A stretch of 8,736 nucleotides of DNA from IMG/VR virus record IMGVR_UViG_2778261227_000012; one strand, given 5' to 3'. This DNA comes from a virus. Lineage: Duplodnaviria; Heunggongvirae; Uroviricota; Caudoviricetes. Below the pieces are notes generated by a model, which made no database searches, was not told where the DNA came from, and saw nothing but the letters and a program-made list of their open reading frames with translations. Positions within the stretch are counted from its first letter, which is position 1, and the number at the start of each line of letters is the position of its first letter. This document shows, piece after piece, positions 146 through 8,736 of the stretch. The translations under genes and the position numbers were made by a program.

Positions 146-682
146 ATGTCATTTATTAAAACTTTTTCCGGGAAGCATTTTTATTATGACAAGATAAATA
201 AAGACGACATCGTGATTAACGATATCGCAGTTTCCCTTTCAAATATCTGTCGCTTTGCAGGACATCTTTCACACTTCTACAGCGTCGCCCAGCATGCGGT
301 GCTTTGCAGCCAGCTGGTACCGCAGGAATTTGCTTTTGAAGCGTTAATGCATGATGCAACAGAAGCATATTGCCAGGACATCCCCGCTCCACTGAAACGC
401 CTTCTTCCTGACTATAAACGGATGGAAGAAAAAATAGATGCCGTAATCCGTGAGAAATACGGGTTACCCCAGGTTATGAGCACGCCTGTGAAATATGCCG
501 ATCTCATCATGCTGGCAACCGAACGCCGCGATCTCGGGCTTGATGATGGCTCTTTCTGGCCTGTACTGGAAGGCATCCCGGCAACAGAGATGTTCAACGT
601 GATTCCACTGGCACCGGGCCATGCCTACGGGATGTTTATGGAACGTTTTAACGAGTTATCGGAGTTACGCAAATGCGCATGA
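146..682 (+). CDS. HD-domain metal-dependent phosphohydrolase (YfdR-like 5'-deoxynucleotidase family), prophage early-region gene
   Basis: ORF track 134..682; I place the start at ATG 146 (GGAGA 6 nt upstream) rather than GTG 134. Product contains an H...HD motif (AGHLSH...LMHDATEAY) typical of the HD phosphohydrolase superfamily. Named by motif and recollection, not by search. Confidence 0.6.
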   Translation: MSFIKTFSGKHFYYDKINKDDIVINDIAVSLSNICRFAGHLSHFYSVAQHAVLCSQLVPQEFAFEALMHDATEAYCQDIPAPLKRLLPDYKRMEEKIDAVIREKYGLPQVMSTPVKYADLIMLATERRDLGLDDGSFWPVLEGIPATEMFNVIPLAPGHAYGMFMERFNELSELRKCA

Positions 683-1035
683 ATGTTTTCGAAATGGAAG
701 GGTTTCTTCGTGGGAGATGTGTACCGCGAGATCTGAAAGTGAATGAAACAGATGCTGAATACCTGGTACGTAAATTCGATGCGCTTGAAGCTAAATGTGC
801 AGCACTGGAAAACAAAGTAATACCAGTGTCAGCTGAACTGCCGCCAGCAAATGAAAGTGTTCTGTTATTTGATGCTAATGGAGAAGGCTGGCTGATTGGC
901 TGGCGTTCTCTCTGGTACACATGGGGGCAAAAAGAAACCGGAGAATGGCAGTGGACATTTCAGGTCGGGGACCTTGAAAACGTCAATATCACTCACTGGG
1001 CAGTAATGCCGAAAGCACCAGAGACTAAGAAATGA
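673..1035 (+). CDS. Hypothetical prophage protein (YfdS-like, 120 aa), Trp-rich C-terminus
   Basis: ORF with GGAG 8 nt upstream of ATG 673; overlaps the stop of the preceding gene by 10 nt (translational coupling); no recognisable catalytic motif. Confidence 0.45.
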   Translation: MRMNVFEMEGFLRGRCVPRDLKVNETDAEYLVRKFDALEAKCAALENKVIPVSAELPPANESVLLFDANGEGWLIGWRSLWYTWGQKETGEWQWTFQVGDLENVNITHWAVMPKAPETKK

Positions 1036-1247
1036 GCGTGATAAAAACTCATACAGGAATTGTTATCACCCGAGACGGTGAAAAGCGGATGAAATTACAT
1101 TCCACTGAAACGTCCTGGGTTGCCGGACGTTGTGAATCCTACGACAAAAAGACTGGTTACCGTTGGGGTGCACCTAACATGCGTCGCCGTCTGCTACTGG
1201 ACAGCATCAGGCCAATAAAACAGGTAGCAACCAGGGAACAAAATTAA
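1032..1247 (+). CDS. Small hypothetical prophage protein (71 aa)
   Basis: ATGA start/stop overlap with the upstream ORF (1032-1035) suggests coupling in the same operon; basic small protein, function unknown. Confidence 0.35.
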   Translation: MSVIKTHTGIVITRDGEKRMKLHSTETSWVAGRCESYDKKTGYRWGAPNMRRRLLLDSIRPIKQVATREQN

Positions 1248-1294
1248 TTATCAGGACTGGAATTTGATATTACTGCCCGTGTGCAGCGGGCTAA

Positions 1295-1513
1295 GTGGAG
1301 AAACATATGCTGAACCTCGATTGTGTTCCAATCTCAACTTATTGCAAAGAAACTGGCGAAACTCCTGAAGCAATAAACAAACGTGTACAGCGCGGTGTTT
1401 GGCGTGAAGGTGTTCAGGTTTTAAAGGTTGAAGGCGTTAAGGAGAGGTGGATTGATCTTAGTGAGGTTGCAAAATGGGCCAGACAAAACTGCTCAAACTA
1501 CCGCGCGGCGTAA
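1295..1513 (+). CDS. Excisionase-like / small DNA-binding recombination directionality factor candidate
   Basis: 72-aa ORF immediately upstream of and overlapping the integrase start (ATG 1474) by 40 nt, the typical xis-int arrangement; GGAG 8 nt upstream of ATG 1295; basic, Trp-containing pattern (RVQRGVWREG...ERWIDLSEVAKW) resembles Xis/AlpA-type winged-helix proteins. Assignment by context and pattern only. Confidence 0.45.
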   Translation: MEKHMLNLDCVPISTYCKETGETPEAINKRVQRGVWREGVQVLKVEGVKERWIDLSEVAKWARQNCSNYRAA

Positions 1514-2640
1514 CAATCAGGAAACACCGCTAGGGCGAAACGATCAATATAACTTTCACCTACAAAGGAGTTAAATGTCGTGAGCCTCTTTCCAATCTGG
1601 AAGTAACACCAAAGAACATTAAATACGCCGAGCGTACACTCGGCGAAATCCATAATAAGATCGAAAGGGGAACATTCATTTATGCAGAATATTTTCCCCG
1701 TTCTGCTCGTTTGAAAATTTTTGGTAATGCTGCTGCAGGCAAAACGGTAAAGATGTACCTGGACGAATATCTTGAAATCTGCGAAACAAGAAAACTTTCA
1801 CCCTCTACGATTGGTGGCTATAAAAAATGCCGTAGTGCGTTAGCCTCACTTCACATTTGCCCTGCAAGTGAATTAACACCAGCAATCCTGAAAGCGTGGA
1901 TTCAAAGCCAGAAAACGACCTTAAAAACAATTCGCAACCAGTTATCTTTCCTGCGGTCAGCACTTGATGAAGCCGTAACCGATGGGGTACTTCAAATTAA
2001 CCCCGTATCGTTGGTAACTGCTTCGCGCTACCAAAGTGATAAGTCAGAAGCAGAAAGCAGCTATGTGGTTGATCCGCTATCACCAGCAGAAGTTGATGCA
2101 TTACTAGCAGCAGCCGGAAACAAACAATGGGAAAATCTGTTCCGGTTCGCCATACATACAGGCCTGCGTAGTTCTGAATTATGTGCCCTACGATGGCATG
2201 ATATCGACTTTGTTGGAAAAACAGCCCATGTTCAGAGCGCAAGTGTTGTCGGAGTTATCAAAGGAACAAAGACAAAAGCCGGTACCCGTAAAGTTGAACT
2301 GACTGAAGAAGCAATGTTGGCGTTGATAAACCAGAAGCCATTTACATTCATGAAGGATGCTACTGTCTTTGAAGATCCAAAGACCAATAAACCCTGGGCA
2401 AGTGCTGATGCAATTAGGAAAAAAGCATGGGTGCCAACATTGCGAAAAGCAGGTATTCGTTACAGAAACCCATATCAAACCAGGCATACATTCGCCACCA
2501 GACATATCAGCCGGGGAGCAAACCTGTTTTGGCTTGCAGCTCAAATGGGGCATAAAGGGCCTGAGATGCTTTTCAGGCACTATGGCTCATATCTGAAGGA
2601 ATATGATGGACAAACAAGCTTGAAGAAGATAACAATATAA
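1474..2640 (+). pseudogene. Tyrosine recombinase (phage integrase with N-terminal arm-DNA-binding domain) interrupted by an in-frame amber codon TAG at 1531-1533 (codon 20)
   Basis: Frame 1 from ATG 1474 reads MGQTKLLKLPRGVTIRKHR-TAG-GETINITFTYKGVKCREPLSNLEVTPKNIKYAERTLGEIHNKIERGTFIYAEYFPRSAR..., the conserved N-terminal pattern of this integrase family (KLPxGVxIR...I.I.F.Y.G.RCRE.L...N.K.AE.....I..G.F.Y...FP.S), continuous across the stop. Downstream catalytic region looks intact (LRSSELCALRWHDIDF; RHTFATRH; MGHK; RHYGSYL with Tyr). The ORF-track start at 1711 is a TTG with no upstream ATG/GTG in frame. Confidence 0.6.
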
Positions 2641-2657
2641 TCCAAGCATGAAACTAT

Positions 2658-2676
2658 TGGCCACAATTTGTGGCCA
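2658..2676. promoter_or_regulatory. Perfect 9-bp inverted repeat TGGCCACAA-T-TTGTGGCCA followed by TTTT; candidate operator or weak terminator between the integrase and the ATPase gene
   Basis: Read directly; lies 18 nt after the integrase stop and 23 nt before ATG 2699; the 9-mer TGGCCACAA recurs at 4457-4465. Confidence 0.4.
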
Positions 2677-2698
2677 TTTTACGGAGCAAGATAGAAAC

Positions 2699-4432
2699 AT
2701 GGCAAATCAAATTACCAAACTAAAAAATATAAATGTTGTGAAGTTTCGCGGACTGAAAAATATAAACATCGAGTTTGGTTCTCGCCTAACTGTTATTTGT
2801 GGTAAAAATGGCACATCTAAATCCACAATTCTTGGCATTATCGCCCAAATATTTAGCTTTACAAAGGACTTTACCAAAAACCCTGAGACTGATTTAACAC
2901 AATATAAAACATTAACAAATGGCAGCTTCAAGTCAGCTTTCAGCGAACATTTTAGGCTTTCAGAACAATTTGATGTTCCTGGTTCAATGGACGTCAAAAT
3001 TAGTGTCTATGATGGTGCATCGAACAAACATCTTGAAAAACTAACATTAGGTTTATACAGCTACAGTGACAGAGATAAATCAAGGCCTGTAGTCAGGGGA
3101 AATGATTCAATACCGGAAAAAAACCAAAGTAGAAACGTTACTCATCCTGTTATTTTTTTAAGCTTAGCACGACTTCTTCCTATTACATTAAGGACTGATT
3201 ACTCAACACGGGATGTTCAGTACATCAATGAAAATTCTGATGAAATCAGAATGATGAGTAACCAACTCTTACTAAAAAACAATGGAAGCTCAGTAACAGC
3301 AACAAAAGGTACTATCGATTCAATGGTTGTCCATGGTGACAATTATGATCACCAATCAGTATCTGTTGGTGAAGATAATGTTGGACAATTAATCCAAGCA
3401 ATTTTTTCATTTAAAAGATTGAAGGAAACTTATTCTGATTATCATGGCGGAATATTGTTAATTGATGAAGCCGATGCAGGTCTTTTCCCTGCTGCACAGT
3501 TAGAGCTAATTAATATTCTAACTAAAGCAGCAAAACAATACGATCTGCAAATAATCATGACCTCGCACTCTCCATTAATAATAGAGGATATCTATAATCG
3601 TTCAAAACAAGATAGTGATAGCTTTAAAACAATATATCTTACAGACACATATGGAGATATTAAAACAAAGAATAATCTTTCATGGACAGATATCCACGCT
3701 GATTTACATGTTGAAACTGTAAAAATTAATGATGACATTTGTCTTCCAAAGGCAAATGTATATTTTGAAGACAAAGAAGGTTTCGACTTTTTCAAACAAT
3801 TGATAACAGATCGAAAAATAAATAAAATATTAAATCCATTAGGGAATATAAATATTAGCTGCTCTGCCATGCTTGACTTAATGGCAAGAAAAATACCAGA
3901 ATTTACAGCTAAAAGCTTGATCGTCTTAGACGGTGATGTTGTTCACGACAATAGTGCTAATGCAAAAAAAGCCAAAAAAGAAAAAAACTTATGTTTGCTT
4001 CCAAGCACCTTACCTCCAGACCAAATGATTTTTGAGTTTTTATATAATTTACCACCTGATGATGCATATTGGGAAAATAAAAATAAATTTACAAAAGCTG
4101 TTTTTATGAAAACAGCTAAAGACATAATTGCAACGCTAAAGATTGGTAACGCTCCGATTGATTTAAAAATCCTTATAGATAATTATAAAAAAGTTAACAA
4201 AAACCATGGCGGGATAGTTAGAAAACTGTTTAAAGATTTTGCACATACGACTCAATTTCAGGCCCAAGTAAAAGGGCGAGTTAAAGATAACCCATATCGA
4301 TATTGGGTCGAGAAAAATCCTGTGCAATCGGATAGCTTCAAGAATGAACTAATAAAGAGTCTTAAAGTTATTATGACAAGTGGACATGGTGTCGATTCTG
4401 CTACCATCTCATCATATCTGTCAGATAACTAA
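2699..4432 (+). CDS. OLD-family (overcoming lysogenization defect-like) nuclease: N-terminal ABC/AAA_21-type ATPase fused to C-terminal TOPRIM-like domain; candidate anti-phage defence protein
   Basis: Walker A LTVICGKNGTSKSTIL; Walker B GGILLIDEADAGLF; H-loop-like IIMTSHSP; C-terminal TOPRIM-like acidic motifs VYFEDKEGFD and SLIVLDGDVV (DxD). Start chosen at ATG 2699 (GGAG 13 nt upstream; N-terminus then matches the usual IxKLxIxNFRGxK lead-in), but ATG 2648 (ORF-track start) cannot be excluded. Gene is visibly AT-rich relative to flanks. Confidence 0.65.
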   Translation: MANQITKLKNINVVKFRGLKNINIEFGSRLTVICGKNGTSKSTILGIIAQIFSFTKDFTKNPETDLTQYKTLTNGSFKSAFSEHFRLSEQFDVPGSMDVKISVYDGASNKHLEKLTLGLYSYSDRDKSRPVVRGNDSIPEKNQSRNVTHPVIFLSLARLLPITLRTDYSTRDVQYINENSDEIRMMSNQLLLKNNGSSVTATKGTIDSMVVHGDNYDHQSVSVGEDNVGQLIQAIFSFKRLKETYSDYHGGILLIDEADAGLFPAAQLELINILTKAAKQYDLQIIMTSHSPLIIEDIYNRSKQDSDSFKTIYLTDTYGDIKTKNNLSWTDIHADLHVETVKINDDICLPKANVYFEDKEGFDFFKQLITDRKINKILNPLGNINISCSAMLDLMARKIPEFTAKSLIVLDGDVVHDNSANAKKAKKEKNLCLLPSTLPPDQMIFEFLYNLPPDDAYWENKNKFTKAVFMKTAKDIIATLKIGNAPIDLKILIDNYKKVNKNHGGIVRKLFKDFAHTTQFQAQVKGRVKDNPYRYWVEKNPVQSDSFKNELIKSLKVIMTSGHGVDSATISSYLSDN

Positions 4433-4440
4433 TTGATTAA

Positions 4441-4479
4441 AAAGGGCTTTATGTGATGGCCACAAAGCCCTTTTTTTGA
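4441..4479 (+). terminator. Rho-independent terminator: 10-bp stem AAAGGGCTTT/AAAGCCCTTT, 13-nt loop, T6 tail
   Basis: Read directly; lies 9 nt after the ATPase stop; the loop contains TGGCCACAA. Confidence 0.6.
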
Positions 4480-4511
4480 TATACTTTAGATCTGACATTT
4501 AGAGGTATCAT

Positions 4512-5411
4512 ATGCGTTTTAACACCCCACTTCGCTATCCTGGCGGTAAAGGCAAGCTTGCAAATTTCATGCTTCGGCTTATTGAAGAAAATAATCTTTC
4601 GCCTATACATTATGCCGAACCATATGCTGGGGGTGCTGGTTTAGCATTGAAACTGTTACATCTAAATGCAGCTGAAAAAATCATCCTTAATGATATTAAT
4701 ATTTCTGTTTATGCTTTTTGGCACAGTGTATTAAATCATGCAGATCAATTATGTTCTTTAATTGAAAGAACTGAAGTTACAATGGATGAATGGTTTAGGC
4801 AGAAAGATATAATTAATAATCCTAAAGACCATGATCTTTTAACAATTGGTTTCTCAACCTTTTTTCTCAATAGAACAAATCGTTCTGGAATATTAAAAGG
4901 TGGAGTAATTGGCGGTAAAAATCAAGAAGGGAAATGGAAGCTTGACGCTCGCTATAATAAGAGTGATTTGATTTCTCGAATCCATAAAATATCAGAAAAT
5001 CGTCACAGAATAGATTTATATAACATGGATGCAATTGATTTCATTAAAAAAATAGTTATTCAATTGCCACAAAACTCATTAACATATTTGGATCCACCTT
5101 ATTACATAAAAGGTAAAGGTTTATATATCAACCATTATAATCATGATGATCATGTTAGGGTTGCAAAAGTCGTACAGAATAATATTAAAACACCTTGGAT
5201 TGTTTCTTACGATAACACTCCTGAGATCCAAGCTATGTATAAGACATCATCATTAGTATATGGAATAAACTACAGTGCTCAAGATCGGTACAAAGGATCT
5301 GAGGTAATGTTCTTCAGTGAACGATTGAAAATCTTTAAAACAGATGATCCAACTAAGGTAAAAGCGCCTGTATTTAAAAGAGGATGTGTTGACGACCACA
5401 TCCAGACATAA
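4512..5411 (+). CDS. Dam-family (D12 class, alpha-type) DNA N6-adenine methyltransferase
   Basis: Motifs in the order of Dam-family enzymes: RYPGGKGKL (Dam WAGGK-like), EPYAGGAG (AdoMet-binding FxGxG), FFLNRTNRSG (Dam LNRxGxNG-like), LTYLDPPYY (catalytic DPPY); AGAGG RBS 7 nt upstream of ATG; AT-rich. Confidence 0.8.
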   Translation: MRFNTPLRYPGGKGKLANFMLRLIEENNLSPIHYAEPYAGGAGLALKLLHLNAAEKIILNDINISVYAFWHSVLNHADQLCSLIERTEVTMDEWFRQKDIINNPKDHDLLTIGFSTFFLNRTNRSGILKGGVIGGKNQEGKWKLDARYNKSDLISRIHKISENRHRIDLYNMDAIDFIKKIVIQLPQNSLTYLDPPYYIKGKGLYINHYNHDDHVRVAKVVQNNIKTPWIVSYDNTPEIQAMYKTSSLVYGINYSAQDRYKGSEVMFFSERLKIFKTDDPTKVKAPVFKRGCVDDHIQT

Positions 5412-5484
5412 AAGGAGCCGCAAAAGATCCGCAGAATAAAATGGTTAGTATTAATCGTTTTATTTCAGCTAATTATAAAAATAC

Positions 5485-5516
5485 GGACTCGGGTTCAACT
5501 CCCGCCAGCTCCACCA
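5485..5516 (+). other. ssrA: 3'-terminal fragment of tmRNA (ssrA): T-arm plus acceptor 3' strand and CCA; attachment-site (att) remnant marking a mobile-element boundary
   Basis: GGACTCGGGTTCAACTCCCGCCAGCTCCACCA: T-loop TTCAACT, 3' acceptor strand CAGCTCC with the U that forms the G3:U70 alanine-identity wobble, discriminator A, CCA. Upstream sequence is AT-rich and not tmRNA-like, so this is a partial copy, not a complete gene. One T-stem position appears unpaired. Confidence 0.7.
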
Positions 5517-5563
5517 AAATTCTCCATCGGTGATTACCAGAGTCATCCGATGAAGTCCTAAGA

Positions 5564-5595
5564 GCCCGCACGGCGCAAGCCCTGCGGGCTTTTTT
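5564..5595 (+). terminator. GC-rich hairpin (GCCCGCA...TGCGGGC) followed by T6; intrinsic terminator downstream of the tmRNA 3' end
   Basis: Read directly; position matches where a native ssrA terminator would sit. Confidence 0.55.
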
Positions 5596-5649
5596 GTGCC
5601 CTCAATTTGTCCCGCGAAGTCCGAAGAAAACTAATTAAATCCGATCCTT

Positions 5650-5703
5650 TTAGGCACCTTGTTAGGCACCTCATAAAGCTTTATTGTTTTTTGAGGTGCC
5701 TAA
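5650..5703. repeat. Three copies of a 10-bp motif (TTAGGCACCT direct x2 at 5650-5659 and 5662-5671; inverted AGGTGCCTAA at 5694-5703) just upstream of the P4-type integrase start; candidate integrase/regulator binding sites
   Basis: Read directly; 19-28 nt upstream of ATG 5722. Confidence 0.35.
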
Positions 5704-5721
5704 AACTATGGAAACCCGGCA

Positions 5722-6777
5722 ATGGCAAGACAAACCAAACCTCTATCCGTTAAAGAAATAGAATCAGCCAAACCCAAGGAGGCGGACTACGTTCTCTATG
5801 ATGGCGATGGCCTTGAGCTACTCATTAAATCCAGCGGGAGTAAAATCTGGCAGTTTCGCTACATTCGCCCTGTCACCAAGAAACGAGCAAAGAAGAGCAT
5901 AGGCTCCTACCCGTCAGTTACCCTTGCCGATGCCAGAAACTACCGTGCAGAGTCCCGCTCACTACTGGCTAAACAGATCGATCCGCAGGAACATCAGCAA
6001 GAACAATTGCGCAGTTCGCTGGAAGCCAAAACCAACACTTTCCAACTCGTAGCTGAACGTTGGTGGAATGTGAAGAAAGCCAGTGTGACAGAGGACTATG
6101 CGGAAGATATCTGGCGCTCTCTTGAAAGAGACGTCTTTCCTGCGATTGGCGACGTTAGCGTTACAGATATTAAAGCTCATACACTGGTTCAGGCCGTACA
6201 ACCGGTTCAGGCCAGAGGAGCACTGGAAACTGTTCGTCGCCTGTGCCAACGTATTAATGAGGTCATGATCTATGCCCAGAACACAGGGCTGATTGATGCT
6301 GTTCCCAGCGTTAATATCGGTAAAGCCTTCGAGAAGCCTCAGAAAAAGAACATGCCCAGCATTCGACCGGATCAGCTACCTCAGTTAATGCAGACGATGC
6401 GAACAGCCAGCATTAGCCTTTCCACACGCTGCCTGTTCATGTGGCAACTTCTTACTATTACCCGCCCTGCCGAAGCGGCTGAAGCTCTCTGGGAAGAGGT
6501 AGACATAGAAGCGCGAGAGTGGAAGATTCCTGCAGCACGCATGAAAATGAACCGCGACCATACTGTTCCATTGTCAGATGAAGCAATTGCGATACTAGAG
6601 ATGATGAAGCCGTTAAGTGGAAATCGAGAATTTATCTTTCCCAGCCGCATCAAGCCAAACCAGCCGATGAACAGTCAGACCGTAAACGCATCGCTAAAAC
6701 GCGCAGGTTTTGGTGGGGTGCTCGTTTCACACGGCCTGCGATCTATCGCCAGTACAGCCCTTAATGAGCAGGGATGA
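5722..6777 (+). pseudogene. P4/CP4-57 (IntA)-type tyrosine integrase, C-terminally truncated (ends ...SHGLRSIASTALNEQG, before the catalytic tyrosine)
   Basis: N-terminus MARQTKPLSVKEIESAKPKEADYVLYDGDGLELLIKSSGSKIWQFRY is the hallmark of P4-family integrases that follow tRNA/tmRNA genes; the H-G-L-R box is present, but the ORF stops before the conserved downstream segment with the second His and active-site Tyr. No other frame continues the homology, so this is truncation or replacement, not a simple frameshift. Confidence 0.6.
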
Positions 6778-6852
6778 TGCGCCGCGCGATAAACGTACCT
6801 ATTTCCGTGAGATAAATTACATCGCCGCGGCATTTCAATATCAGAAAAAGAA

Positions 6853-7425
6853 TTACAAATCAGCTTGAGTTTGAAGTTCCTCTACAGGGTGATAACGATA
6901 AATCGTCGATATACCGATATCGTAAATAATTGCCAACTGTTTCCTGCTATAGCCATTTTTGATCAGCCTTGCTATTTGTTCATGTTGCTCTTTTGTCAGT
7001 TTCGGACGACGTCCACCAATACGCCCCTGTGCACGTGCTGCTTCAAGTCCGGCCAGTGTTCGTTCAACTATTAATTCACGCTCCATTTCCGCTAAAGCCC
7101 CCATGACGTGAAAAAAGAAACGTCCCATGGGTGTTGACGTATCAATGCTGTCTGTAAGACTACGGAAGTTAACCCCTTTTTCCCGCAGTTCCTCAATAAG
7201 AGTGATGAGGTGTTTCATGCTTCTGCCCAGCCTGTCCAGCTTCCAGACAACGAGCGTATCTCCTTCTGATAACGTTCTGAGCAGCTTTTTCAATCCCGGT
7301 CGGGCTGACTTTGTTCCGCTGATTTTATCCTCAAAAATCAGTTCACATCCTGCGCAGTTCAGTGCGTTTCGTTGTAAATCTGTATTCTGGTCATTTGTTG
7401 ACACACGAATGTAGCCAATTTGCAT
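6853..7425 (-). CDS. Serine recombinase, DNA invertase of the Hin/Gin/Pin/Cin family
   Basis: N-terminus MQIGYIRVSTNDQNTDLQRNAL with catalytic Ser in YIRVSTNDQ; conserved LVVWKLDRLGRS, GRFFFHVMGALAEMERELIVERT, C-terminal HTH (ISTIYRY). True start is the internal ATG at 7425-7423 (AAGAGGA RBS upstream on the minus strand); the 65-codon N-terminal extension in the ORF track is not family-like. Confidence 0.85.
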   Translation of the reverse strand: MQIGYIRVSTNDQNTDLQRNALNCAGCELIFEDKISGTKSARPGLKKLLRTLSEGDTLVVWKLDRLGRSMKHLITLIEELREKGVNFRSLTDSIDTSTPMGRFFFHVMGALAEMERELIVERTLAGLEAARAQGRIGGRRPKLTKEQHEQIARLIKNGYSRKQLAIIYDIGISTIYRYHPVEELQTQADL

Positions 7426-7477
7426 GAAAAATATCCTCTTTGTTTTGTTAAAAATACATAGCTGGTATAGGTGGGAG

Positions 7478-7503
7478 TTAAGACGAAAACGTTGGTTTGG
7501 GGG
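7478..7503. promoter_or_regulatory. Candidate invertase crossover site (AAACGTTGGTTT core, resembling the AAACC-NN-GGTTT core of hix/gix sites), overlapping the start of cassette 1 and lying about 55 bp upstream of the invertase start
   Basis: Sequence AGACGAAAACGTTGGTTTGGGGGAAGG; the same core recurs at the start of cassettes 2 and 3 (about 7962-7987 and 8562-8587). Half-site symmetry is imperfect; exact boundaries are uncertain. Confidence 0.3.
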
Positions 7504-7964
7504 AAGGCTCGGCGCTGCCCGTTGGTGTGCCTGTTCCGTGGCCCTCAGCCACACCACCAACGGGCTGGCTGAAATGTAACGGTGCAGCATTTTCTTCTGA
7601 AATGTATCCCAAACTGGCAAAAGCTTACCCCACCAATAAATTACCGGATTTACGGGGTGAATTTATTCGTGGCTGGGATGATGGGCGGGGAATTGATAAT
7701 AGACGCAACCTACTGTCTGCACAGTCTGACACTATTCAGAATATAGTTGGCACTTTTGGACGAACTCAGCTTTTTAAAGATGCTTTAAATTCAGGGCCAT
7801 TTAGTCAAACTGACTCTATATTATCAGTAGGCTTGCAACCAACTGAGAGTATTGAAGGATATGGCGCCTCTGTATGGACATTCGACGCCTCTCGCTCAGT
7901 TCGCACAGCATCTGAAACACGTCCTCGTAACATTGCGTTTAATTACATCGTAAGGGCGGCATAG
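7482..7964 (+). CDS. Tail-fibre C-terminal cassette 1 (phage tail collar domain + variable receptor-binding core + conserved ...ETRPRNIAFNYIVRAA end); promoterless, no ATG start
   Basis: Open in frame from 7482; conserved motifs PWPSATPPTGWLKCNGAAFSSEMYP...LPDLRGEFIRGWDDGRG (tail collar) and NIAFNYIVRAA (P2 H / T-even fibre-type C-terminus); no ATG or RBS, begins 56 nt from the divergent invertase start. Confidence 0.6.
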   Translation, partial: DENVGLGEGSALPVGVPVPWPSATPPTGWLKCNGAAFSSEMYPKLAKAYPTNKLPDLRGEFIRGWDDGRGIDNRRNLLSAQSDTIQNIVGTFGRTQLFKDALNSGPFSQTDSILSVGLQPTESIEGYGASVWTFDASRSVRTASETRPRNIAFNYIVRAA

Positions 7965-8565
7965 AAACGTTGGTTTGGGGGAAGGCTCTGCACTGCCCGT
8001 TGGTGTGCCTGTTCCGTGGCCCTCAGCCACACCGCCAACAGGGTGGCTGAAATGTAACGGCGCAGCATTTTCTTCTGAAATGTACCCCAATCTGGCACAG
8101 GCTTACCCCACGAATAAATTACCGGATTTACGCGGTGAATTTATCCGTGGCTGGGATGACGGACGTGGCGTGGATGCGTGGCGAACATTACTGAGTGCTC
8201 AGGATTTTGCGTTTGAAGATCATGCTCTGGGGCTACCTACCAATCAGGGATATGCAGGTATTGAGAAAGGTAGCACTGAAAATGATGTTTATGCCGCTTT
8301 CTCTGATGGCATGCACTATACAGGGAATGTAACCAGTAGCGGTCAATGGGATGATTATTCTCAGTCAAAAATTTATATCCGTAGTGATGGTAAGCCTGTC
8401 GGAAATAATATTGAGTTAGCTAACTCAAGTGAGGCTTTGCGTTCTTCTTTGCGTACTTATAGAGCCAGTACAGGATGGTATAACCCAGGACTAAACAAAC
8501 CTAAAACAGCTACAGAAACACGTCCGCGCAACGTTGCTTTTAATTACATCGTAAGAGCCGCATGA
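7954..8565 (+). CDS. Tail-fibre C-terminal cassette 2 (same conserved collar N-block and C-terminal block, different and longer variable core); promoterless
   Basis: Open in frame from 7954, overlapping the cassette 1 stop (7962-7964) by 11 nt in another frame; conserved first ~65 codons and last ~16 codons, divergent middle. Confidence 0.6.
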   Translation, partial: GRHRNVGLGEGSALPVGVPVPWPSATPPTGWLKCNGAAFSSEMYPNLAQAYPTNKLPDLRGEFIRGWDDGRGVDAWRTLLSAQDFAFEDHALGLPTNQGYAGIEKGSTENDVYAAFSDGMHYTGNVTSSGQWDDYSQSKIYIRSDGKPVGNNIELANSSEALRSSLRTYRASTGWYNPGLNKPKTATETRPRNVAFNYIVRAA

Positions 8566-8736
8566 AAACGTTGGTTTGGGGGAAGGCTCTGCACTGCCCG
8601 TTGGTGTGCCTGTTCCGTGGCCCTCAGCCACACCGTCAACAGGGTGGCTGAAATGTAACGGCGCAGCATTTTCTTCTGAAATGTACCCCAAACTGGCACA
8701 GGCTTACCCCACCAATAAATTACCGGATTTACGGGG
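8555..8736 (+). CDS. Tail-fibre C-terminal cassette 3, partial (runs off the window end); same conserved collar N-block
   Basis: Open in frame from 8555, overlapping the cassette 2 stop (8563-8565); sequence to 8736 repeats the conserved 5' block and mixes variants seen in copies 1 and 2. Confidence 0.55.

Follow-up and report, generated by a model that had tools for sequence, protein, structure and literature searches.

A likely recent nonsense mutation at a Dcm site in the integrase gene of an ssrA-integrated lambdoid prophage of Escherichia coli

Introduction

Has the integrase of a lambdoid prophage at the 3′ end of ssrA been lost through a genuine mutation, or does an internal stop codon give a false impression of a gene that is sound or still expressed? 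The question is raised by the window, by which we mean the whole stretch of 8736 bp analysed here, and which is the complete contig NLUL01000064.1 of the E. coli draft genome assembly GCA_002232775.1. It holds a gene for a tyrosine integrase of the phiNP type in which an amber codon stands at codon 20. A sequence-only reading of this DNA had put forward several explanations, namely a very recent inactivation by domestication of the prophage, which would lock its cargo in place, a sequencing error, amber suppression and re-initiation downstream. The possible origin of the change at a Dcm CCAGG hotspot, the att site and the identity of the cargo were absent from that reading.

We consider it likely that the integrase gene (int) of this prophage was hit by one genuine and recent nonsense mutation, from CAG (Gln20) to TAG, which left a null gene and stranded the prophage together with its cargo. 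Below, we set out the state of the gene, the ancestry of its codon 20, the attachment site and the cargo, and then weigh the other ways in which the stop might be understood.

The integrase gene and its interrupted frame

The features on which the argument draws are collected in Table 1. Translation from the ATG at 1474 meets one internal stop, the TAG at codon 20, and the frame then runs uninterrupted to the terminal TAA at 2638-2640. The stop is thus single and in frame and falls inside the arm-binding domain, as had been proposed from the letters of the sequence. The family pattern also continues in the same frame past the stop, since the Pfam match to the arm domain spans codon 20 when the stop is masked as X; the sequence of this domain is there, but it is not translatable within a protein. 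With the stop masked in the same way, Pfam further places a SAM-like core-binding region at residues 94-178. The catalytic domain is intact as well, with R232, K266/K268, H338, R343, H360 and the tyrosine Y370 all retained, as judged by alignment to the Tn1549 integrase (6en0/6emy) and by motif positions. The excisionase-like reading frame that had been seen to overlap the int ATG is an excisionase gene, xis; the overlap amounts to 40 nt and the TAA of xis precedes the amber codon by 18 nt. Its product shows 0 amino acid differences from those of three relatives (L005, L006 and L009).

The gene therefore has the R-K-H-R-H-Y catalytic domain, the arm domain, the adjacent excisionase gene and the cognate ssrA att core that characterise its family. 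It lacks an uninterrupted reading frame, and because of the TAG at codon 20 it is filed here as a pseudogene of the family and not as a working member.

Table 1. Positions of the features discussed in the text (window coordinates)
Feature	Position	Strand	Evidence or remark
xis, excisionase gene, 68 aa, intact	1307..1513	+	phrog_2917, E=7.7e-44
Integrase gene (tyrosine integrase, phiNP type, ssrA-targeting), now pseudogene	1474..2640	+	388 codons, one nonsense codon
Coding region of arm-type DNA-binding domain, residues 10-77	1501..1704	+	Pfam PF12167 Arm-DNA-bind_2, E=8.2e-23
CTAGG, mutated Dcm site; all intact relatives read CCAGG	1530..1534	.	Second C, methylated by Dcm, at 1531
Amber codon TAG, codon 20, from CAG (Gln) by C-to-T at 1531	1531..1533	+	Alignments with relatives
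TTG, codon 80, first in-frame start-type codon past the stop	1711..1713	+	No Shine-Dalgarno; anti-SD duplex +1.2 kcal/mol
ATG, codon 94, first in-frame ATG past the stop	1753..1755	+	Weak Shine-Dalgarno, -3.0 vs background -1.75 +/- 2.45 kcal/mol
Coding region of catalytic domain, residues 202-370	2077..2583	+	Pfam PF00589 Phage_integrase, E=1.2e-16
AAA_15/AAA_21 ATPase, 577 aa, prophage cargo, intact	2699..4432	+	Exact protein in 1249 blocks of assembly collection
D12-class N6-adenine DNA methyltransferase, 299 aa, prophage cargo, intact	4512..5411	+	PF02086; PADLOC PDLC04018, E=5.1e-124
int-proximal att core, 27 nt, equal to the 3′ end of ssrA (CGGGTTCAACTCCCGCCAGCTCCACCA)	5490..5516	+	Partial tmRNA match, E=6.6e-7

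The ancestral codon and the age of the stop

Relatives of the integrase gene are common. The xis-int region is present in 412 of 5426 complete E. coli genomes at 90-99% identity (BLAST); all 40 of the matches listed bear the annotation of an intact 'site-specific integrase', and an intact gene of 1167 nt is present in each of the three that were inspected closely. The comparison with orthologues that had been suggested as a check gave a uniform answer within the species, as codon 20 is CAG (Gln) in each of the 13 intact related E. coli loci examined. Among intact homologues more widely, residue 20 is Q, L or N.

Compared with the commonest allele, the int gene of the window differs at 11 positions. 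Ten of these are synonymous third-position differences that also occur in the H1 strain allele, a case of ordinary allelic mosaicism, and the C-to-T change at 1531 is the sole private substitution in the gene. Once Gln is restored at codon 20, the protein is 100% identical in amino acid sequence to the integrase of strain KCJ3K291 (annotated as WP_001603285.1), alleles of which occur in about 400 complete E. coli genomes. The KCJ3K291 locus also resembles the window in its neighbours, a yfdR-like gene, xis, the ATPase and the methylase, and its int gene differs in having C in place of T at 1531 and at 10 synonymous positions.

As the gene shows no decay besides the stop, the nonsense mutation appears to be recent. 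Nor has decay spread to the surroundings, since the products of xis, the ATPase gene and the methylase gene each show 0 amino acid differences from those of relatives. The proposal of a recent inactivation is therefore supported by the sole private change and by the complete identity of the repaired protein, and the cargo does lie inside the prophage (see below). The element of domestication in that proposal, in the sense that loss of the integrase was selected, is not borne out, as one neutral mutation at a hotspot explains the data.

A Dcm site at codon 20

Deamination of 5-methylcytosine yields thymine. The dcm gene is common in E. coli and is missing from some lineages, such as B strains. 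In the ancestral context of codon 20, CGC-CAG-GGC (CGCCAGGGC), a CCAGG is present, and it is the second C of this site that has changed. The change thus combines an ancestral CCWGG, mutated at the second C, with a G:C to A:T transition. The repaired int gene holds four Dcm sites. Of all one-step routes to a nonsense codon in the gene, 2 of 161 fall at Dcm-methylated positions, or 2 of 27 if C>T and G>A changes alone are counted; these two routes are CAG20 to TAG, the one observed, and TGG308 to TAG.

The amber hotspots of lacI are G:C to A:T changes at the second C of CCAGG that turn CAG into TAG (Coulondre, Miller, Farabaugh and Gilbert 1978, reviewed in PMC12606429). The lacI hotspots are recurrent events measured in a K-12 laboratory strain, whereas here there is one natural allele whose origin is deduced from its position. 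This position lends good circumstantial support to an origin by deamination, and the mutation would most likely have arisen when a 5-methylcytosine at the Dcm site was deaminated and missed by very-short-patch repair.

The same stop in a plasmid-borne copy

The amber allele is rare. A 56-mer ending at the TAG matched 405 records from complete E. coli genomes, of which one matched end to end at 100%; those next among the matches listed have one mismatch. With a 61-mer centred on the TAG, 0 of 283 matches reached 100%, a figure to be read with the knowledge that a TAG allele with a second difference close by, such as that of GPEC1054 with T at 1536, shares its identity band with CAG alleles. The exact 56-mer match comes from plasmid p1054c of E. 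coli GPEC1054 (NZ_JBUBIS010000004.1). A scan of metagenomes for the TAG allele returned one low-coverage contig (L016; ERZ791603 NODE_7655) with the same sequence as the p1054c copy, and a search for the exact pattern in viral contigs and in contigs of one genome per species returned none.

The p1054c copy has the same xis-int module and the same TAG at codon 20. Unlike the window copy, it is plasmid-borne, adjoins artAB-like toxin genes and is disrupted by insertion sequences, with an IS3 inside xis and an IS256 truncating int; PGAP flags its internal stop. It has accumulated 16 private substitutions in 638 bp, of which 8 are nonsynonymous and include C35G in the conserved RCRE motif, whereas among intact alleles 5 polymorphic sites are nonsynonymous and 40 synonymous (Fisher p=0.0027). 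The window copy is free of such decay. Between the two TAG-bearing haplotypes, that of the window and that of the plasmid and metagenome copy, there is no informative polymorphism across 1298-1535, and from 1536 onwards the p1054c haplotype departs from that of the window. An independent mutation and a short gene-conversion tract are both possible sources of the common TAG; a Dcm hotspot would also account for its recurrence in the plasmid copy.

The attachment site, the cargo and the phiNP phage

After the att core of the window comes the ssrA terminator. E. coli 042 has the 27-mer of this core twice, once inside ssrA and once just past the methylase gene, and because the two copies flank the prophage there, 5490-5516 can be assigned as the int-proximal att core and the ATPase and methylase genes as cargo inside the prophage. 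As these two genes sit between int and the att core, they would indeed be locked in by the loss of the integrase. The homologous prophage of E. coli 042 is already a remnant of ~28 kb although its int is intact. A match of 5507-5595 to the Rfam family 'IsrM' was dismissed as an sRNA, since its 32 bits fall far short of the gathering score, 376, and the segment is simply what follows ssrA.

Along its full length, the methylase corresponds to PADLOC PD-Lambda-5_B; PD-lambda-5 is a compact prophage defence system resembling RM+Abi (PMC9519451). A scan of 1200-5720 for promoter and terminator consensus sequences gave 13 promoter-like sites, compared with 15.1 +/- 3.4 in shuffled sequence, and was uninformative on the polarity of the cargo.

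For phiNP, the attP is the 25-bp 3′ terminal region of ssrA, 5'-TGGTGGAGCTGGCGGGAGTTGAACC-3' (PMC6456863), and its reverse complement is found at 5492-5516 of the window. This temperate phage is released spontaneously and forms lysogens in E. coli K-12 (PMC6456863). Its integrase (Citrobacter rodentium phage phiNP, OR565852.1) is an orthologue and the closest phage protein, and has 93.3% amino acid identity to that of the window across 388 residues, and the two loci share the xis-int overlap and the order xis, int and AAA ATPase. In contrast to the window copy, which stops at codon 20, the phiNP integrase is uninterrupted and has Asn at this position, and no methylase is annotated past the ATPase in the stretch of phiNP examined. 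The phiNP-type family is thus a working integrase elsewhere.

Expected consequences for integrase production

Ribosomes would be expected to load at the native int start, because its Shine-Dalgarno pairing is good (anti-SD duplex -7.1 kcal/mol), and to terminate after 19 residues, so that neither the arm-binding, nor the core-binding, nor the catalytic domain would be made. As none of these domains is made, the cell would be left without the Int needed for integration and for Xis-assisted excision. The prophage would then be stranded at ssrA with an intact xis and with its ATPase and methylase, a PD-lambda-5-like cargo. Basal read-through of UAG is normally well below 1%, and near-cognate read-through by tRNA-Gln in E. 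coli inserts Gln. Any residual activity would probably come from rare events of the latter kind, in which insertion of Gln would yield the wild-type protein in trace amounts.

Gene callers start a product of 295 aa at the ATG at 1753, and this 295-aa 'integrase' is an annotation artefact of the stop. For the 309-aa product that would start at the TTG at 1711, no record was found on look-up. One member of a cluster of 309-aa proteins (P0014) was considered as another nonsense allele and rejected, as it is a partial sequence at a contig edge.

Alternative explanations of the stop

Two of the alternatives concern the origin of the T at 1531. It may be asked whether the isolate really has CAG, the T being an artefact of reads or polishing, as the source is a fragmented short-read draft and the change a single base. 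However, the Logan assembly of read set SRR3957182, which corresponds to window positions 616-7510, concurs with the NCBI submission at 6895 of 6895 shared bases, TAG included, an agreement between assemblies that probably go back to a single isolate or read set and so might share a systematic read error or reflect a minority subpopulation. Short-read assemblies, however, seldom contain substitution errors in their consensus, a C-to-T transition is biologically expected at such a hotspot, and the identical allele is present in unrelated data sets (p1054c and the metagenome contig); we regard an error as improbable. Its presence there could mean that the TAG is an older allele, since it stands on the decayed p1054c haplotype and in one metagenome contig and could have come by descent or by gene conversion with the plasmid copy instead of by fresh deamination at this Dcm site. 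The lack of informative polymorphism across 1298-1535 is compatible with a short conversion tract. Yet a pseudogene of old and common ancestry should show decay in both copies, and a long-shared ancestry is unlikely because the window copy has no private change besides the TAG, against 16 in the plasmid copy (8 of them nonsynonymous). The flanking haplotypes differ from 1536 onwards, and recurrence is itself a prediction of a hotspot. On balance we hold an older allele to be unlikely.

The other two alternatives accept the stop and ask whether a useful integrase is nevertheless made. Full-length Int might be produced through a suppressor tRNA of host or phage, or through efficient natural read-through. 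Since intact homologues differ at position 20, the enzyme should accept most residues inserted there and a suppressed product would probably work, and near-cognate read-through by tRNA-Gln would restore the wild-type residue. Against this, the TAG is not conserved, with CAG in all 13 intact relatives, and the sole exact match of the 56-mer among 405 is a pseudogene remnant. No tRNA genes were found in the window, and of ten related loci that were scanned, four contain a tRNA gene, in each case a tRNA-Met several kb beyond the methylase. Together with the low basal rate of read-through, this makes expression by amber suppression, which the earlier reading had entertained, very unlikely. Programmed read-through or recoding was ruled out, as the stop is not conserved (CAG in 13 of 13 intact relatives, L or N in other family members). 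Re-initiation at the TTG or the ATG would give an arm-less core integrase that might retain an altered function. The TTG at 1711 is the first in-frame restart codon, as had been recognised, and lies past the arm domain; the downstream frame is fully intact, with all catalytic residues kept, gene callers predict the product from ATG 1753, and lambda Int, when reduced to isolated C-terminal fragments, is still active in cleavage and Holliday-junction resolution. An intact downstream frame, however, is expected in any case after a recent mutation. The nearest in-frame start is 178 nt past the stop, and Shine-Dalgarno pairing is nil at the TTG and near background at the ATG (Table 1), far from the value at the native start. 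Both products would be devoid of the entire arm domain, residues 10-77, and lambda-type integrases need this domain for att recombination. Re-initiation to a functional enzyme thus found no support and is extremely unlikely.

A further idea builds on the genuine mutation and gives it a role. Codon 20 might act as a built-in Dcm 'fuse', with CCAGG turning repeatedly into an amber codon in independent lineages, once in the chromosomal prophage of the window and once in the plasmid copy, and so preferentially grounding ssrA prophages that carry the PD-lambda-5-like pair, in a leaky and reversible manner. If so, read-through by Gln would keep up a trickle of wild-type Int, and one back-mutation would restore the gene. 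We think this unlikely, and favour a single recent nonsense mutation at the Dcm site as set out above.

Comparison with other inactivated integrases, and implications for annotation

In lambda int amber mutants (for instance int am29) and in 'grounded' cryptic prophages (for instance intQ of Qin in K-12), Int is lost by point mutation and the prophage cannot excise, while its other genes, the cargo among them, are still expressed. These are laboratory mutants or long-decayed remnants, whereas the window copy is free of decay apart from its one stop. The gene is an ordinary recent pseudogene in an integrase family that is already known; its nonsense mutation is of the textbook hotspot kind and involves no new mechanism. 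The case clearly illustrates, in a natural setting, the action of the Dcm-site amber hotspot on a mobile-element gene, and appears to represent the first step of prophage grounding, caught ahead of further decay.

The value of the observation lies mainly in annotation, and no new question arises from it. An entry as pseudogene, with the internal stop noted, is appropriate for the gene in place of a 295-aa 'integrase' starting at ATG 1753. Judging from its sequence, the ssrA prophage of this isolate would best be treated as unable to excise, despite its intact xis and PD-lambda-5-like pair.

Neighbouring elements at the ssrA locus

Just past the att core lies intA, a CP4-57-type (P4-like) integrase gene, at 5722-6777. 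The gene keeps 351 of some 398-413 codons and is cut short near 6771-6775 by the terminus of another element, which carries a Pin/Gin-type invertase gene (6853-7425, minus strand) and tail-fibre cassettes. With a TAG in int and with intA cut by another element, both integrases at the ssrA locus would be disabled, by different routes. In other genomes, the same terminus adjoins a disrupted otsA, fepE, a lom-family gene and others, and in strain M-17 it is part of a myovirus-type tail and baseplate module. In these respects the element behaves as a transposable, Mu-like prophage would.

The amber codon and residue 20 of the integrase

The phiNP-type integrase gene of the window (int) carries its amber TAG at codon 20 (1531-1533), a position that varies within the integrase family, as comparison with the homologous proteins P0003 and P0004 and with phiNP integrase revealed. 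The close relatives examined have Gln at this position, phiNP integrase has Asn, and a 390-aa variant of the integrase present on 146 contigs has Leu; an R19S variant also occurs at the adjacent residue. The same TAG at codon 20 is found in a decayed copy of the xis-int module on the 197 kb plasmid p1054c, in which xis is split by IS3 and int is truncated by IS256. The neighbours of this plasmid module are artA-like pertussis-toxin genes and AB5 binding-subunit genes, together with tRNA-Thr, tRNA-Gly and many IS elements.

The homologous ssrA prophage of E. coli 042 is only ~28 kb in size and lacks most morphogenesis genes, and its invertase is frameshifted. Its integrase, ATPase and methylase genes are all still intact; defective copies, too, thus usually keep Int.

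Features of the window and of related loci
Feature	Location	Remarks
ATPase and methylase pair	window 2699-5411	between int and att core
ssrA (tmRNA) 3' fragment	window 5414-5600	27-nt identity to ssrA end
intA, CP4-57/P4-type integrase gene	window 5722-6777	truncated, 351 codons left
Pin/Gin-family serine invertase and tail-fibre cassettes	window 6853-8736	invertase on minus strand
Homologous ssrA prophage of E. coli 042	L020 20478-48548	
Decayed xis-int module copy	L017 (NZ_JBUBIS010000004.1, plasmid p1054c of E. coli GPEC1054) 9000-15200; also metagenome contig L016	

The att site and the cargo genes

The ssrA 3' fragment constitutes the prophage's int-proximal att site. Its core of 27 nt (5490-5516) matches the end of ssrA without mismatch, the native ssrA terminator follows at 5577-5591, and in E. 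coli 042 the same core is present at each of the two ends of the prophage. The published attP of phiNP is contained within this core (PMC6456863).

Both cargo genes are intact in the window, and in the related loci the pair is linked to this integrase every time. The first encodes an AAA_15/AAA_21 ATPase of 577 aa, for which the top PADLOC matches are partial only, to the ATPase domains of PtuA, AriA and GajA; PD-Lambda-5_A is absent from its best 25 PADLOC matches. The second encodes a D12-class adenine methylase, which is covered over its full length by PADLOC PD-Lambda-5_B (E=5.1e-124).

The junction with a second element

The end of another element cuts intA at ~6771-6775. In E. coli genomes other than this one, the same end adjoins, among others, otsA, fepE and a lom-family gene, and in strain M-17 it is part of a myovirus tail/baseplate module; the element is therefore probably a transposable Mu-like prophage. 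None of the complete E. coli genomes searched shares the window's junction.

Several alternative tail-fibre C-terminal cassettes adjoin the invertase (190 aa as called from 7425), and three directly oriented 231-nt repeats start at 7427, 7905 and 8506 (identity 74-100%), an arrangement that resembles an invertible host-range region with multiple cassettes. The contig stops within the third repeat, probably the reason for the assembly break at this point.
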